DNA from: Neotamlana nanhaiensis
GTDB lineage: Bacteria > Bacteroidota > Bacteroidia > Flavobacteriales > Flavobacteriaceae
Direction: 5' to 3'
DNA length: 64,000 bases
Assembly: GCF_000943555.1 (NCBI RefSeq)
Contig: NZ_JTDV01000002.1
Span: forward strand, 296,831-360,830
A program made the translations under genes and the position numbers. The notes beneath the pieces are model-generated. The model saw nothing but the letters and a program-made list of their open reading frames with translations. It was not told where the DNA came from and made no database searches. Position 1 is the stretch's first letter. Every line of letters starts with the position of its first letter. This document shows, one piece after another, positions 27,392 to 34,230 of the stretch.

Positions 27392-28303
27392 ATGCTTAAC
27401 GTACAAAATCTAACATTTTCATATCAAAAATCACCTATTTTAAAAGACATTTCTTTTAAGGTTGATATAGGCGAAAATCTTGCTGTTATTGGTGAAAGTG
27501 GCTCAGGAAAAAGTACGTTGCTTAATCTTATTTATGGTGAATTTGATTTAAACCAAGGACAAATCTTTTGGAAAGACACCGAAATTCTCGGTCCTAAATA
27601 CAACTTGGTTATTGGTTACGATTTTATGAAATATGTACACCAAGAATTCGATTTGATGCCATACATAAGTGTTTCCGAAAACATTTCGAAATACCTCTCT
27701 CGATTTTATCCTGAAGAAAGCGAAAAACGCACCAACGAACTACTAAAAGTTGTAGAATTAGAGGCTTTTGCAAACGTGAAAGTAAAAACGCTATCTGGTG
27801 GACAAAAACAACGCGTCGCTTTAGCTAGAGCATTAGCAAAACAACCTGAAATTATCTTGTTGGATGAGCCTTTTAGCCATATTGATAATTTTAAAAAACA
27901 AAGCTTACGACGTAATGTGTTTAAGTATTTAAAAGACAAAAATATTACGTGTATTGTGGCGACTCACGATAAAGAAGATGTTTTAGGGTTTGCCGACACG
28001 ATGATTGTACTAGAAAACCAACAAATTTTAGAACAAGGCAAACCAGAAGCGTTGTACAACAATCCCAAAACACCATTAATTGCTTCGTTTTTTAGTGAAT
28101 TTAATGTGATTGATGACCAAATTGTTTACGCAAATCAGTTGAAAGTCATTGATAAATCTAATCTAAAGGCAACTGTAATTACCTGTTATTTTAAAGGCTA
28201 TCATTATTTAATTGAAGCTGATTTAAAAGAAGAAAAAGTATTTTTTGAGCATGATACTTCAATAGAAAAAGGTCAAGAGGTTTTCTTGTCAATTTCGGAA
28301 TAA
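27392..28303 (+). CDS. ABC transporter ATP-binding protein.
   Basis: Walker A GESGSGKST, signature LSGGQKQR, Walker B ILLDEP. Confidence 0.85.
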   Translation: MLNVQNLTFSYQKSPILKDISFKVDIGENLAVIGESGSGKSTLLNLIYGEFDLNQGQIFWKDTEILGPKYNLVIGYDFMKYVHQEFDLMPYISVSENISKYLSRFYPEESEKRTNELLKVVELEAFANVKVKTLSGGQKQRVALARALAKQPEIILLDEPFSHIDNFKKQSLRRNVFKYLKDKNITCIVATHDKEDVLGFADTMIVLENQQILEQGKPEALYNNPKTPLIASFFSEFNVIDDQIVYANQLKVIDKSNLKATVITCYFKGYHYLIEADLKEEKVFFEHDTSIEKGQEVFLSISE

Positions 28304-29292
28304 TTCTTAACCGATTGCTTTAGTTTCTTCAAAATGCGATCTCTTAATTTTTTTGGTTTTAAAACTTCAATACTATCACCAAAGCCTAAAATAAGTCGTT
28401 CTAACTCAAAATTATGCTGAACGAAAATATTGAAAATTGTACCGTCATCTCTAATTTCAATGGTTCGTTGCGATGAGTGAAACGGTTTTGTAATTACATA
28501 AGGTGCGTTTTTTTTATCAACCCAAAACTGTACGCGTTGCGCTCTATAATTTGCTACCGTAACGCCAATGACTTCCTTGTAGTATGTATCACCATCAATT
28601 TGTAAATCAACATAATCTACGCCGTTTTCAACATCGATGTTTAATATTCTATCTAAAGCTAAAGTCATCATTTTTTGTTTGTGAGACGCCAGCAAAAACC
28701 AACGGTTATTAAATTCTTTTAACAACTGAGGATGCACTTGCATAACGCTAGAAGTTCTTGCAGAGAACGATTGATATGATACTTTAATCACTTTTTTATT
28801 TTGTATCGCGTTATAAATAACATCAATAAACTCTAAACCTTTTAGCTGTTCGTTTTTGTCTAAATGAATAATAGCGCGATTGTCCTTTTGCGACGCATAA
28901 ACCGAATCTTCTAAACGCTGTAAAACGCCATCCATTTCTTTAAACAACGAGAAGTCTTTAAATTGCCTTAGCACTTGTATAGCTTCGTTCATTACCTTAA
29001 TATCTTTATCGGTTACTGGTATGTTTACAATGCTGTATTCAGGATCGTCATATTTATAAAATTTACGGTTATAAACCACTATTGGAGCATTATATCCAAG
29101 CTTATCACTACGCATCATTTGTATATCTAACTGCACTGTACGTTTGCTCACATCAATGTCTTTACCTTCGTACTCATAAAGCGCATCAGAACAAACGGTA
29201 ATTAAGTCGTCAAGTGTCCATTCCCGATAATTGTTTTGAAGACATTTATCAATGGTTTTATATCTAATTAATGCATTTTTATTTACAGCCAT
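28273..29292 (-). CDS. WYL domain transcriptional regulator with BrxR/CapW-like wHTH-WYL-WCX architecture. Start moved to MAVNKNAL.
   Basis: N-terminal wHTH (MAVNKNALIRYKTIDKCL), a central WYL-like segment (VIKVSYQSF...VHPQLLKEFNNRWFLLASH), and a C-terminal ELERLILGFGDSIEVLKP tail. Confidence 0.65.
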   Translation of the reverse strand: MAVNKNALIRYKTIDKCLQNNYREWTLDDLITVCSDALYEYEGKDIDVSKRTVQLDIQMMRSDKLGYNAPIVVYNRKFYKYDDPEYSIVNIPVTDKDIKVMNEAIQVLRQFKDFSLFKEMDGVLQRLEDSVYASQKDNRAIIHLDKNEQLKGLEFIDVIYNAIQNKKVIKVSYQSFSARTSSVMQVHPQLLKEFNNRWFLLASHKQKMMTLALDRILNIDVENGVDYVDLQIDGDTYYKEVIGVTVANYRAQRVQFWVDKKNAPYVITKPFHSSQRTIEIRDDGTIFNIFVQHNFELERLILGFGDSIEVLKPKKLRDRILKKLKQSVKNYSEIDKKTS

Positions 29293-29333
29293 TTTTCTCA
29301 ATTTTTTCGAATGAAATAAAGGTAAATAATTTC

Positions 29334-29352
29334 TGCGCAATTAATTTGCGTA
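29334..29352 (-). promoter_or_regulatory. Operator-like motif O1 (TACGCAAATTAATTGCGCA on the minus strand), about 40 bp upstream of the WYL regulator start.
   Basis: Same TACGCAAA-N3-ATTGCGCA pattern as at 30401 and 32707. Confidence 0.5.
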
Positions 29353-29551
29353 CTTCAATTTTTTGAGCAATTTTAGGTTTAAAACAAAAAATTCTTGCTT
29401 TTTTCAAAAAAAGTTAATACTACGTATTAAGGGTTGTAATTTCCTGAAATTCAAAAAATAAATTTTGAAAATTGAAAAATAAATCTAAATCTTTGCAGCG
29501 CAATTGGCTTACTAACAACAGCCAAAACAAGTAAAATTAAAAACAAGAACA

Positions 29552-29629
29552 ATGCGTTTATTTATAACATATCAACCAAAGCCAAAAGGAAAATGGCCTT
29601 TTGTGACGCTTCGTGATTATTGTAGATAA
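29552..29629 (+). CDS. Possible 25-aa small ORF (MRLFITYQPKPKGKWPFVTLRDYCR); speculative.
   Basis: An ATG-to-TAA frame inside a 500-bp intergenic region, followed 25 bp later by a strong terminator. Confidence 0.15.
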   Translation: MRLFITYQPKPKGKWPFVTLRDYCR

Positions 29630-29655
29630 ACTTTTGTAAACTCATACAAAATGAA

Positions 29656-32548: not shown

Positions 32549-32597
32549 TTTTTTGGGCGTAACCACGCTTTTAGTGGCGTGGTCGCGCTTTACGTTA

Positions 32598-32632
32598 TAT
32601 CTTTTGCAAGCAAAAGGATGCCACTTCAATCG
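32598..32632. repeat. Bipartite dispersed element copy C (reverse orientation, compact).
   Basis: CGTTATATCTTTT-GCAAGC-AAAAGGATGCCACT is the reverse complement of the two halves seen in copies A and B. Confidence 0.45.
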
Positions 32633-32706
32633 CTTACGCGGGCAGTCCGTTAAGAACGAGACTAACCACAAGTGTTTTTGAAGTCAGCAATGACCAAAAT
32701 TTATAA

Positions 32707-32742
32707 TACGCAAAAACATTGCGCAATACACTATAATATTTG
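32707..32742 (+). promoter_or_regulatory. Promoter-like block P2: operator motif O3 (TACGCAAAAACATTGCGCAATA) followed by a -7-like TATAATATTTG, upstream of the RtcB-like gene.
   Basis: 22 of 22 nt identical to the motif at 30401, with similar downstream spacing to a TAnnTTTG-like box. Confidence 0.5.
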
Positions 32743-32829
32743 TAATGTCATTCAGAGCGTAAGCGAAGAATCTCATTAACGAGAAAGATAAAAGAAAAAA
32801 ACATTACCACTAACGTGGGAAATAAAACA

Positions 32830-34230
32830 ATGGAAACAAACACAAAAATAACCGGAAAAGACTTAATCAATTTAGGTTACAGACAAGGCAAATGGATGCA
32901 AGAAGCATTGGTTTACATCAACGAAAACCAATTACAAGGCGATGCTTTACAAAGTTATTTAGAGCAATACAAGTTACCAGATCCATTACCATTGCATAAA
33001 ACACCAGTAGATTTTTCAATTAACATAAAAGCAGAAAACGAGCTAGAAGAAGATAACGTTTCTAAAGTCATTAACTCGATGCAAACCTTAATGAAAACAC
33101 CAACATTAGTCAATGGTGCCATTATGCCAGATGCTTGCCCAACGGGACCAGACGGAACCATTCCTGTTGGTGGCGTTGCAGTAGCAAAAAATGCCATTCA
33201 TCCTGGTATGCATAGTGCAGATATTTGTTGTTCAGTCATGCTAACAGACTTTGGAAAAGCAGACCCAAAAGACGTGTTAGATGCAGCACATGCTAATACG
33301 CATTTTGGTCCTGGCGGACGCGATAGAAATACGCAATTTAGATTTCCGAAGGAATTATTAGAAGCTTTTGAAAACAATTATTTCTTAAAAGATCAACAAA
33401 TGATTCAAGCGGCAAGAGCACATTTAGGAACGCAAGGCGATGGTAACCATTTCTTGTTTGTTGGTACATCTAAAAAAACAGGAAACACTATGTTGGTAAC
33501 GCATCACGGATCACGTGGTCCTGGTGCTAGATTATTTACTAAAGGGATGAAAATTGCCGAACGTTTTAGAAAAATATTATCACCAGAAACGTTAAAACAA
33601 AACGCATGGATTCCTTTTGATACCGAAGAAGGAAAAGACTATTGGCAAGCCTTGCAGACCATAAGACAATGGACAAAAACCAATCATGAGGTGATTCATA
33701 ATTCGGTTGCTGAAAGCTTAGAAATAGCTATTGAAAACCGTTACTGGAACGAGCATAACTTTGTGTTTAAAGATGGTGATTTATTTTACCACGCTAAAGG
33801 CGCAACACCTTTAGATACTAAGTTTATGCCAGATATTACAGGTCCAAGGTTAATACCTTTAAACATGAGCGAACCTGTTTTAATTGTTGACGGTGTAACT
33901 ACCAAAACCAATTTAGGTTTTGCGCCGCATGGTGCTGGAAGAAACGTAAGCCGTACACAGCATAGAAAGAGCAAAACGGGAAGCATTATGCAAATTTTTA
34001 AGGAAGAAACACGCGGATTAGATGTTCGGTTTTTCTCTAAAGAAATTGATATTACCGAATTACCAAGCGCTTATAAAAACGCTCAAACCGTTAGAAACCA
34101 AATGGAGGAATACGGTTTAGGAAATGTTATTGACGAGGTTTTACCTTATGGTTGTATTATGGCAGGCGATTGGCAAAAAAATGCACCTTGGCGTGTAAAA
34201 AGAGAGAAAAGAAGAAAAAATAAATCTTAG
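32830..34230 (+). CDS. rtcB: RtcB-family RNA ligase (3'-phosphate/5'-hydroxyl RNA-splicing ligase-like), divergent.
   Basis: RtcB motifs MPD...GGVAV, ADICCSV (Asp/Cys metal site), [14 protein letters not shown], and [11 protein letters not shown] (nucleophilic His). ATG chosen at 32830. Confidence 0.75.

Follow-up and report, generated by a model that had tools for sequence, protein, structure and literature searches.

A probable RNA-repair locus of Neotamlana nanhaiensis with a WYL-family regulator, a shared operator and a large tRNA-like RNA

In Salmonella and Escherichia coli, the rsr-yrlBA-rtcBA and rtcBA operons place the RNA ligase RtcB under the control of RtcR, a CARF-AAA+ sigma-54 enhancer-binding protein that senses damaged tRNA (PMC7790460, PMC10159003). 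A later preprint (bioRxiv 10.1101/312249) credits Burroughs and Aravind (2016) with the prediction of a second arrangement, in which RtcB has a Band-7 protein and a band-7-associated tRNA-like RNA as its neighbours. As the preprint relates, a YrlA-like RNA may adjoin Band-7, Ro60/Y RNA and RlaP are exchangeable parts of such systems, and RlaP also stems from the 2016 work. Here we analyze a window of 64,000 nucleotides (64 kb, the whole stretch of DNA under study) from the Bacteroidota species Neotamlana nanhaiensis, in which an RtcB-family ligase, an SPFH/Band-7 protein and a tRNA-like RNA share an operator sequence with the gene of a transcription factor built from a winged helix-turn-helix (wHTH), a WYL and a WCX domain. 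We consider it probable, with considerable room for doubt, that this locus is the local version of a Bacteroidota RNA-repair/tRNA-stress regulon run by the wHTH-WYL-WCX factor, for which we propose activation of the type described for DriD and PafBC.

The resemblance to the system of Burroughs and Aravind is close. RtcB, Band-7/SPFH and a tRNA-like RNA lie side by side, here within positions 30731-34230, and this grouping recurs in 15 loci of related genomes; furthermore, the exchangeable parts Ro60 and RlaP also occur under the present operator in other genomes. The sequence-only reading of this DNA had taken the combination to be an undescribed system, a view that fails because RtcB, Band-7 and a tRNA-like RNA had already been predicted to act together (bioRxiv 10.1101/312249). 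What differs is the RNA, which here is a composite of approximately 615 nt, with two permuted tRNA-like units between a 5′ and a 3′ domain, and follows a conserved leader. In the literature searched, where Burroughs and Aravind (2016) is represented by second-hand accounts, we found no WYL-family regulator of these systems, no operator, no operator-box geometry, no leader hairpin and no full architecture of the SPFH-linked RNA. Thus, the regulator-operator layer, the covarying leader hairpin and the full RNA appear to be undescribed, and some link may already be noted in the 2016 paper, which an Aravind-lab review cites alongside Makarova et al. We see the locus as a probable RNA-repair system in which a well-defined layer of regulation differs from the known ones and the RNA component exceeds those described so far.

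The RtcR-run operons offer the same overall plan, namely a dedicated ligand-sensing regulator joined to RtcB, a scaffold protein and a tRNA-like RNA. In contrast to RtcR, the factor considered here is a wHTH-WYL-WCX protein expected to act at promoters of the sigma-A type; SPFH replaces Ro60, and three separate promoters take the place of one operon. Neither RtcR nor RtcA is present among the open reading frames (ORFs) of the locus, and the window carries no Ro60 gene. A further parallel comes from Anabaena, where rtcB is co-regulated with an inducible array of supernumerary tRNA genes, the L-array, under translational stress (Santamaria-Gomez et al., 2021, PMC8421152). There, tRNA genes and rtcB stand under a common promoter motif; loci related to ours carry 6-20 tRNA genes within the module or next to it, some of them directly behind the operator. 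The Anabaena motif differs, being made of 9-nt direct repeats that cover the -10/start site. The unit in this window contains no intact tRNA, only tRNA-like units and a remnant.

Operator, cargo genes and comparative linkage

The regulator gene occupies 28273-29292 on the minus strand and encodes a protein of 339 aa. The pattern TACGCAAA-N3-ATTGCGCA, scanned across the 64 kb in the exact form TACGCAAANNNATTGCGCA, occurs exactly three times, at 29334-29352 (minus strand; O1), 30401-30419 (plus strand; O2) and 32707-32725 (plus strand; O3), which upholds the three copies noted from the sequence alone. No exact match was present in 100 dinucleotide-preserving shuffles. When up to three mismatches were allowed, a single additional site (three mismatches) appeared in the window, within the SPFH gene, and the palindromic core CGCAA-N5-TTGCG is restricted to O1, O2 and O3. 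We also built a weight matrix from 82 sites of other genomes, with the window's own sites excluded. It describes the operator as a 19-bp pseudo-palindrome with the consensus TRCGCAAA-A-N2-ATTGCGYA and assigns scores of 51.1 to O2, 46.7 to O3 and 21.6 to O1; the next-best score in the 64 kb is 8.3 and belongs to the reverse face of O2.

Each copy sits in front of a gene or transcription unit. O1 (operator TACGCAAATTAATTGCGCA, 29352..29334 on the minus strand) is followed by 13 nt and then by TTTA at 29320..29317, so that the whole unit spans 29317..29352. It faces the regulator gene, whose ATG lies 42 nt from the operator end, and is presumed to be the autoregulatory promoter of that gene. O2 forms part of the putative promoter P1 (30401-30436, plus strand), in which 13 nt separate the operator from a TTTG -7 box at 30433-30436. 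P1 would drive the unit containing the structured RNA and the SPFH gene, with transcription expected to begin a few nucleotides downstream of 30436. O3 is arranged identically in P2 (32707-32742, plus strand; TTTG at 32739-32742), the predicted promoter of rtcB, with 104 nt between the operator end and the rtcB ATG. The two cargo blocks are identical at 32 of their 36 positions, in keeping with their earlier description as near-identical, promoter-like blocks of 36 bp.

To place these features in context, we used the regulator to retrieve 80 genomic loci (L-numbered hereafter) and mapped genes and motifs onto each. One or more RNA-repair genes lie on the cargo (operator) side of the WYL gene in 77 of the 80 loci, with RtcB present in 63, RlaP in 29, SPFH in 15, Ro in six, PNKP phosphatase in six and Rnl in four. 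RtcB is divergent from, and less than 800 nt away from, the WYL start in 38 loci. An exact-core scan covering 1.42 Mb of these loci returned 88 operator sites, almost all on the cargo side, and the weight matrix recovers one-mismatch operators in nearly all loci that lack an exact copy. In 25 of 27 loci, 36-43 nt separate the operator from the WYL ATG; the distance is 61-63 nt in the other two (L012 and L016). Most genomes have one operator in a short divergent region, approximately 90 nt from the rtcB ATG. In the clade of the window, a module comprising a TPR protein gene, the RNA and SPFH lies between the regulator and rtcB, and the operator-promoter is present in triplicate. The O2/P1 block precedes the RNA-SPFH unit with an exact core in L001, L005, L007-L012, L016, L025, L026 and L036, and with a one-mismatch operator in L002, L058, L059 and L069. 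Conservation of the operator extends from Mesoflavibacter to Chryseobacterium and Elizabethkingia and further into metagenomes; the operator always adjoins the WYL gene and/or sits directly upstream of RNA-repair genes.

A motif-first survey that made no use of the proteins gave a similar picture. Among 120 metagenome stretches with the exact 19-mer, 42 also carry a correctly spaced TTTG box, and WYL or RNA-repair genes lie close to the motif in 31 of these. The 78 stretches without the box are mostly chance matches in high-GC DNA, and only eight of them are near WYL or repair genes. Among the metagenome matches are regulators with no more than 42-55% identity, paired with canonical RtcB, Ro60 and RlaP, and the system thus extends far outside Flavobacteriales. 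The earlier proposals that the regulator shares its operator between its own promoter and two cargo promoters, and that one regulon joins the tRNA-like RNA, SPFH and RtcB, are therefore backed by O1-O3, by footprinting over the 80 genomes and by the motif-first scan. Moreover, the WYL genes of other genomes are linked to RNA-repair genes in nearly every case surveyed.

The rtcB gene (32830-34230, plus strand; ATG at 32830) encodes a divergent RtcB-family RNA ligase of 466 aa. Its assignment, first made from the sequence alone, is upheld by a Pfam RtcB match (residues 194-448, 1.6e-37) and by retention of the catalytic motifs; its NCBIfam scores are far below the cut-offs. In an alignment with Pyrococcus horikoshii RtcB, DICC, GDGNHF, HHGSRG and PHGAGR correspond to D95/C98, N202/H203, H234 and H404, respectively, and EHN, the equivalent of H329, is present by inspection outside the aligned blocks. 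The protein thus keeps the metal-binding and GMP-accepting residues, and ligase activity is predicted. It also has an extra N-terminal region of approximately 75 aa. We note that residues 1-75 (32830-33060) give a weak, sub-threshold Pfam match to tRNA_NucTran2_2, a domain of CCA-adding enzymes (E = 0.003), which hints at a tRNA-binding appendage. The SPFH/Band-7 protein (31454-32548, plus strand; 364 aa) matches Pfam Band_7 over residues 137-307 (4.5e-30). It has no detectable transmembrane segment (maximum 19-residue Kyte-Doolittle score of 0.96), is atypical in lacking a membrane anchor, and is presumed to be a scaffold partner of the RNA.

In other genomes, the genes found directly behind the operator-promoter include those for Ro60/TROVE with vWA, a T4-type RNA ligase (RNA_lig_T4_1), a HAD_PNKP phosphatase, the nucleotidyltransferase RlaP and a Barstar-like RNase inhibitor. 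All identifiable cargo under the operator acts on RNA, and no DNA-repair gene was seen among it. Together with tRNA genes under the same operator-promoter, the recurrence of Ro60, T4-type ligase, PNKP phosphatase and RlaP strengthens the original suggestion of an RNA-repair module. Proteins without a Pfam match (approximately 140-590 aa) are also encoded directly behind the operator-promoter elsewhere and are candidate new regulon members; they lie on the reverse complement (rc) of L002 (rc 10103-10714), L013 (rc 11777-12451), L041 (rc 16632-17270), L061 (rc 11839-13608) and L006 (rc 10088-10516).

Close relatives carry tRNA-Pro and/or tRNA-Tyr genes between the promoter and the structured RNA; tRNA genes at this spacer-equivalent position are found in L001, L002, L007, L008 and L012. 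Several loci have arrays of 6-20 tRNA genes on the cargo strand, and an operator precedes the tRNA genes or arrays of L002, L017, L041 and L043. More broadly, arrays of 4-20 tRNA genes of mixed specificity, all on the cargo strand, are part of the WYL/RtcB/SPFH module or adjoin it (L004 rc 13263-15165, L048 rc 13521-15038 and L069 rc 17352-18640; also L041, L017, L043, L051 and L037). Their order is similar between genera (Lys-Ser-Pro-Ser-Asn-Cys-Tyr...), and the arrays have the appearance of spare tRNA sets, spread horizontally and linked to the RNA-repair regulon. Other tRNA-like sequences were also observed. In Elizabethkingia, a 130-nt tRNA-like sequence with an insertion (Rfam tRNA, 46 bits) lies between the operator-promoter and the Ro60 gene. 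In further genera, partial matches to a T-arm and D-arm occur just downstream of Ro60 or RtcB. The sites of such RNAs include L070 rc 13009-13284, L071 rc 13020-13294, positions of approximately 12100-12800 in Chryseobacterium loci, and the region downstream of Ro60 in L022, L023 and L057.

The gene of the TPR protein (29842-30390, plus strand; 182 aa; Pfam TPR families) has no operator directly in front of it in the window. Homologues are present in 21 of the 80 loci, typically immediately upstream of an operator that precedes RNA or tRNA genes. The gene is a constant upstream neighbour of the unit formed by the operator and a tRNA or tRNA-like RNA, even in loci without SPFH. Its product ends in a lysine-rich C-terminal tail, KPKKKKASKKKKSKKDKKKKNKK (30315-30390, residues ~158-182), which could bind nucleic acid.

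Regulator, promoter geometry and proposed mechanism

In the YafY-like regulator, Pfam recognizes WYL at residues 171-236 (1.4e-11) and WCX at residues 268-342 of the longer ORF (5e-13), both above cut-offs, and returns no HTH match. That longer ORF begins at a listed TTG at 29340, a start that would overlap O1. We place the start at the ATG at 29292 because homologues (336 aa) begin at an ATG. An AlphaFold2 (AF2) model predicts three helices and a beta hairpin for residues 3-81 (pLDDT of approximately 77-85), as expected of an N-terminal wHTH. Homologues are 60-93% identical across Flavobacteriaceae and Weeksellaceae (93% in Mesoflavibacter, approximately 79% in Winogradskyella, 72% in Polaribacter and Tenacibaculum, and 61% in Chryseobacterium and Elizabethkingia), suggesting that the regulator behaves as a conserved core gene.

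Since a sequence search against solved structures gave no match, we turned to a fold search. The top Foldseek matches of the regulator model are PafBC (bound to RNA polymerase) and DriD, with E-values of 9e-13 to 1e-12, and BrxR and CapW follow at approximately 1e-7; the full-length alignments to all four span the N-terminal wHTH. As far as a mediocre model can tell, the activators PafBC and DriD would be the nearest solved structures, ahead of BrxR and CapW, and the previous label of a BrxR/CapW-like regulator is not supported. DriD of Caulobacter and PafBC of mycobacteria have the same domain order and length as the protein described here. They also act at a site in place of a missing -35 element (-33 in Bacteroidota), at a fixed distance to the -10 (here -7) element, which is common to several promoters of a stress regulon. 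The differences are that identity is low (14-19%), that DriD and PafBC serve DNA-damage regulons with a single-stranded DNA (ssDNA) ligand whereas the regulon here concerns RNA repair, and that the host uses a Bacteroidota sigma-A with -7/-33 elements, at which activation is our prediction. BrxR and CapW, which repress BREX and CBASS, respectively, likewise combine the wHTH-WYL-WCX architecture with a palindromic operator; their genes, too, are transcribed divergently from the cargo and are preceded by an operator. The two are nonetheless weaker structural matches and shorter proteins; unlike theirs, the present locus has no adjacent defence system and its operator geometry suggests activation.

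This geometry is strikingly uniform. Among 91 operator sites in the 80 related loci, 84 have exactly 13 nt between the operator end and the TTTG of the Bacteroidota -7 box. An A of this box is conserved as well, and the bases between operator and box are free to vary. The operator occupies the position of the -33 box, and no TTTG/-33 box is present at the expected place. O1 has the same 13-nt geometry toward the regulator gene, with TTTA instead of TTTG. DriD sites similarly overlap a missing -35 element, at a constant distance to the -10 element, in promoters that lack a -35 element (PMC13004042, 2026). Because the operator stands at the -33 position with fixed spacing and without a -33 box, DriD-type activation is favoured. 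Promoters of Bacteroidota have spacers of roughly 17-23 nt. The TTG of the right half-site was considered as a -33 element and rejected, because its spacer to the -7 box would be 13 nt, outside this range. From this analysis, activation would be at least as likely as derepression, the mode put forward in the sequence-only reading, whose case is weakened by a geometry that is that of DriD-activated promoters. We favour ligand-dependent activation, including positive autoregulation, with repression by occlusion as a serious alternative.

In the mechanism that we propose, a dimer of the regulator would bind the operator, and a nucleic-acid signal held in its WYL domain would enable it to recruit RNA polymerase to promoters that lack a -33 box. 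Such DriD/PafBC-like activation would switch on the regulator gene, rtcB and the RNA-SPFH unit together. RtcB would then reseal breaks with 2′,3′-cyclic-phosphate and 5′-OH ends, and the soluble SPFH protein and the tRNA-like RNA may assemble into a particle that serves, much like Ro60-Y RNA, as a scaffold or cofactor, a role of the kind attributed to Burroughs and Aravind (2016) in later accounts of that work. The signal would most plausibly be a product of RNA damage, such as cleaved tRNA, and the regulator would therefore be a functional counterpart of RtcR. This choice is attractive because the regulon is devoted entirely to RNA and because RtcR provides a precedent for the sensing of damaged tRNA (PMC7790460). 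More tentatively still, the WYL domain might sense damaged RNA directly (cleaved tRNA or 2′,3′-cyclic-phosphate ends), while a particle of SPFH and the ~615-nt RNA captures broken tRNAs for RtcB, a bolder version that we regard as possible rather than probable.

Several observations weigh against the proposed regulon and its mechanism. We infer the promoters, the sign of regulation and the ligand alike, and an operator over the -22 to -40 region could equally be a repressor site. The AF2 model of the regulator is mediocre (pLDDT of 66.5, pTM of 0.34, Foldseek TM of 0.33-0.39), and the protein is only 14-19% identical to any solved relative. The characterized WYL regulators for which a nucleic-acid ligand is known (DriD, PafBC and CapW) all sense ssDNA and not RNA. 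No operator stands directly in front of the tRNA arrays of L004, L048 and L069. Furthermore, the window's own rtcB promoter has lost the conserved leader described below, and the RNA-SPFH partnership is a proposal; the RNA might instead be a cis-acting leader of the SPFH mRNA.

The strongest competing explanation keeps the regulon and inverts its sign: the WYL protein would be a repressor of the BrxR/CapW type that occludes O1-O3 and leaves upon ligand binding. The placement of the operator across roughly -22 to -40 of each promoter is classic for occlusion, BrxR and CapW share the domain architecture and are significant fold matches, CapW is described as a repressor released by ssDNA (PMC11662680), and an operator at the regulator's own gene is what autorepression would predict. 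However, occlusion requires no invariant spacing, and the 13-nt distance holds at 84 of 91 sites across several families and in front of unrelated cargo genes. This fixed spacing and the absence of any -33 box both match DriD-activated promoters, PafBC and DriD, which match the regulator in length, come out of the fold search ahead of BrxR and CapW, and no defence system is nearby. We therefore doubt that the regulator is a repressor, while granting the idea an appreciable chance.

Another explanation concerns the signal. The regulator might sense ssDNA arising from DNA damage or phage replication, so that RNA repair would be one output of a response of the DNA-damage type. DriD, PafBC and CapW bind ssDNA in the WYL domain (PDB 8tp8, 9c5g), and the Salmonella rsr-yrlBA-rtcBA operon is reported to be expressed during the SOS response (PMC9879122). 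The cargo speaks against this idea: everything identifiable acts on RNA (RtcB, Rnl, PNKP phosphatase, RlaP, Ro60, Barstar and tRNAs), with no DNA-repair gene seen under the operator. In addition, other WYL ligands exist, for example c-di-GMP (PMC11880434), and the identity of the ligand cannot be read from a low-confidence model with 15% identity to its relatives. An ssDNA signal is thus conceivable, and on the present evidence we judge it unlikely.

A structured RNA upstream of the SPFH gene

The unit behind O2 is composite, comprising a leader, a spacer, a structured RNA and the SPFH gene, with an RNA part of approximately 1 kb. No credible ORF exists in 30440-31453, and this region contains a real, conserved structured RNA, so that its initial description as an ORF-free structured region stands. 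ARAGORN finds no tRNA there.

The unit opens with a leader RNA of two hairpins (30437-30530, plus strand). Hairpin 1 is formed by 30453-30458 and 30468-30473, and hairpin 2 by 30488-30497 and 30507-30516, with the loop UCGCAGGAA. The leader is conserved in 31 sequences, with compensatory changes at all ten pairs of hairpin 2, and in most genera the same leader precedes rtcB. Related short repeats (gtcaYRctgagcgYagtcgaagYR / gtcattcagagcgtaagcgaagaatctc) were observed at 29756-29779 and 32747-32774 of the window and in L009, L010 and L011. They differ in position between loci, and one occupies the part of the window's rtcB leader that corresponds to the hairpin leader of other genomes; it is possibly a miniature mobile repeat that displaced the latter. 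The leader is followed by a non-conserved spacer (30546-30730, plus strand), which lies at the place of the relatives' intact tRNA-Pro and tRNA-Tyr genes and is probably a decayed tRNA remnant. A functional tRNA was rejected for this spacer, which shows no conservation and receives no ARAGORN or Rfam tRNA call.

The structured RNA itself (30731-31344, plus strand) begins with a 5′ domain, continues with two permuted tRNA-like units and ends in a closed 3′ domain. We aligned 16 sequences for the core (30731-31010) and 13 for the 3′ domain, drawn from six or more genera, and searched for the RNA with nhmmer profiles. The core model contains 62 pairs; a hairpin at 30838-30860, where the alignment is out of register, was left out of the tested structure. 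In this model, 98.9% of alignment cells are paired, compared with 38-47% in controls with slid partners, and 35 of the 62 pairs show double changes. The covariation score is 0.463, versus 0.05-0.11 in controls, and none of 500 shuffles reaches this value.

The 5′ domain of the core covers 30737-30826 of the plus strand in the 16-sequence alignment. Unit 1 is enclosed by a stem (30861-65/30921-25) and comprises a T-arm (30870-86), a closed acceptor-like hairpin (30887-30902) and a D-arm (30905-19), and its helices carry compensatory changes. Unit 2 resembles a permuted tRNA, with a T-arm (30934-50), an acceptor-like closed hairpin (30951-68), a D-arm (30971-87) and an anticodon arm (30989-31005). 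The 3′ domain (31011-31344) has a hairpin (31046-49/31063-66) and long-range helices (31108-18/31334-44, 31121-26/31326-31, 31153-56/31322-25 and 31169-73/31306-10); according to Alifold with 13 sequences, these helices are 87-94% paired, with 3-7 compensatory pairs each. All of these elements lie on the plus strand.

The order of unit 1 is that described for YrlA (T-arm, closed acceptor-like stem, D-arm; PMC4201824), here within an enclosing stem, and YrlA (Rfam RF02553) is the best Rfam match. The match is sub-threshold at 36.2 bits (gathering score of 69), as is a partial match to tRNA at 26.6 bits (gathering score of 29). In contrast to YrlA, the present RNA is much larger, the Ro60-binding motif GNCGAAN0-1G is absent from 30440-31453, and no TROVE/rsr gene occurs in the window. 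In 16 loci and in the window, the full-length RNA immediately precedes the SPFH gene; the sequence of L069 ends within the RNA.

This constant position invites another explanation, in which the ~1-kb RNA works solely in cis as a structured 5′ leader, or is a co-transcribed string of decayed tRNAs, and has no partnership in trans with SPFH or RtcB. The RNA always lies directly upstream of the SPFH gene on the same strand without a strong terminator between them, real tRNA genes occur in the same transcription unit of relatives and a decayed one in the window, and the tRNA-like units resemble junctions of tandem tRNAs. Nevertheless, decay would not keep 98.9% pairing and 35 compensatory pairs, nor would it preserve closed acceptor-like hairpins, a 5′ domain unlike tRNA and long-range 3′ helices across six or more genera, and the order of T-arm, closed stem and D-arm is that of YrlA, which acts in trans. 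We find a purely cis-acting or decayed RNA rather improbable, and prefer a role for the RNA together with SPFH.

Genomic setting and implications

The genes upstream of the module encode MscL, Asd (aspartate-semialdehyde dehydrogenase), a prolyl oligopeptidase and an ABC ATPase, and those downstream a GreA-like protein, a transglycosylase, an FAD oxidoreductase, AccC, AccB and FabH. These housekeeping flanks are syntenic in related genomes, and the locus is not in a defence island. PADLOC gives no match for SPFH, RtcB or the TPR protein, and the regulator matches only generic Cas-associated WYL models. Among 2.9 million viral contigs, just two contain the operator with its box, both of them devoid of neighbouring repair genes, and a phage origin was rejected on these grounds. 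The earlier placement of a BrxR/CapW-like module at the edge of a defence island is contradicted by these flanks, by the lack of PADLOC matches for the cargo and by the near absence of the operator from viral contigs.

It follows that an anti-phage module in a defence island, regulated like BREX or CBASS, is very unlikely. WYL regulators do often flank defence systems, the generic PADLOC models do match the regulator, and RNA repair can counter tRNA cleavage by phages or toxins (see the jumbo-phage review PMC7824862). Against this stand the conserved synteny of the housekeeping flanks, the cargo proteins without PADLOC matches, the scarcity of the boxed operator in viral contigs and the absence of repair genes beside it there, and a regulator that is 60-93% conserved across two families in the manner of a core gene.

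Two other elements were observed in this neighbourhood. Between the regulator and TPR genes, at 29488-29705 (plus strand), lies a conserved element resembling a small RNA (sRNA), with a -7-like box (aaatcTTTGcag), approximately 190 nt conserved at 70-95% across genera, and a stem (CAAAAGG/CCTTTTG) with a variable loop. It ends in a strong intrinsic terminator (29657-29705), has no operator in front and is absent from Rfam. A 25-aa ORF within it (29553-29630) is probably non-coding and was rejected as a gene, the conserved feature being the stem with its variable loop. Flavo-1 RNAs (Rfam RF01705, 51-55 bits, above the gathering score) occur at 20789-20940 (plus strand), 32577-32647 (minus strand) and 36591-36664 (plus strand). 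These intergenic copies on either strand look like a dispersed element and not part of the module, and the copy at 32577-32647 was rejected as a module component given the two further copies elsewhere in the window.

That the operator motif is itself a generic dispersed repeat or a chance palindrome has a negligible probability: dispersed elements such as Flavo-1 do occur in the window and the bare 19-mer is present by chance in many high-GC metagenome contigs, but none of the 100 shuffles contains a match, the rest of the 64 kb scores no higher than 8.3 against 21.6-51.1 at the three sites, and the motif is strongly associated with the TTTG box and with WYL and repair genes. We also noted that the bare 19-mer TACGCAAATATATTGCGCA, followed by an identical gtctggagaggacggaaaga, is repeated in many contigs, mostly of human-gut metagenomes and several labelled as such (L081, L096, L104, L120, L149, L165, L170 and L189). 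These lack the TTTG box and any WYL or repair genes and represent an unrelated conserved sequence that contains the motif.

The locus bears on how bacteria outside the RtcR-containing lineages time the induction of RNA repair. It offers a sharply defined operator with fixed promoter geometry and a candidate sensor protein, and it contributes a structured RNA, over 600 nt long, that Rfam does not contain. The membership of the regulon varies between genomes, yet it always acts on RNA (RtcB, Rnl, PNKP phosphatase, RlaP, Ro60, SPFH and tRNAs). The inducing signal, the sign of regulation and the RNA-protein partners become testable in culturable Flavobacteria, Chryseobacterium and Elizabethkingia. 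If the WYL domain does sense damaged RNA, the regulator would be the first RNA-sensing WYL transcription activator and a Bacteroidota counterpart of RtcR, and the particle of SPFH and tRNA-like RNA would be a machine like Ro60/Y RNA made from unrelated parts. The regulon as proposed would extend the reach of WYL regulators from the control of DNA-damage responses and phage defence to the control of responses to RNA damage.

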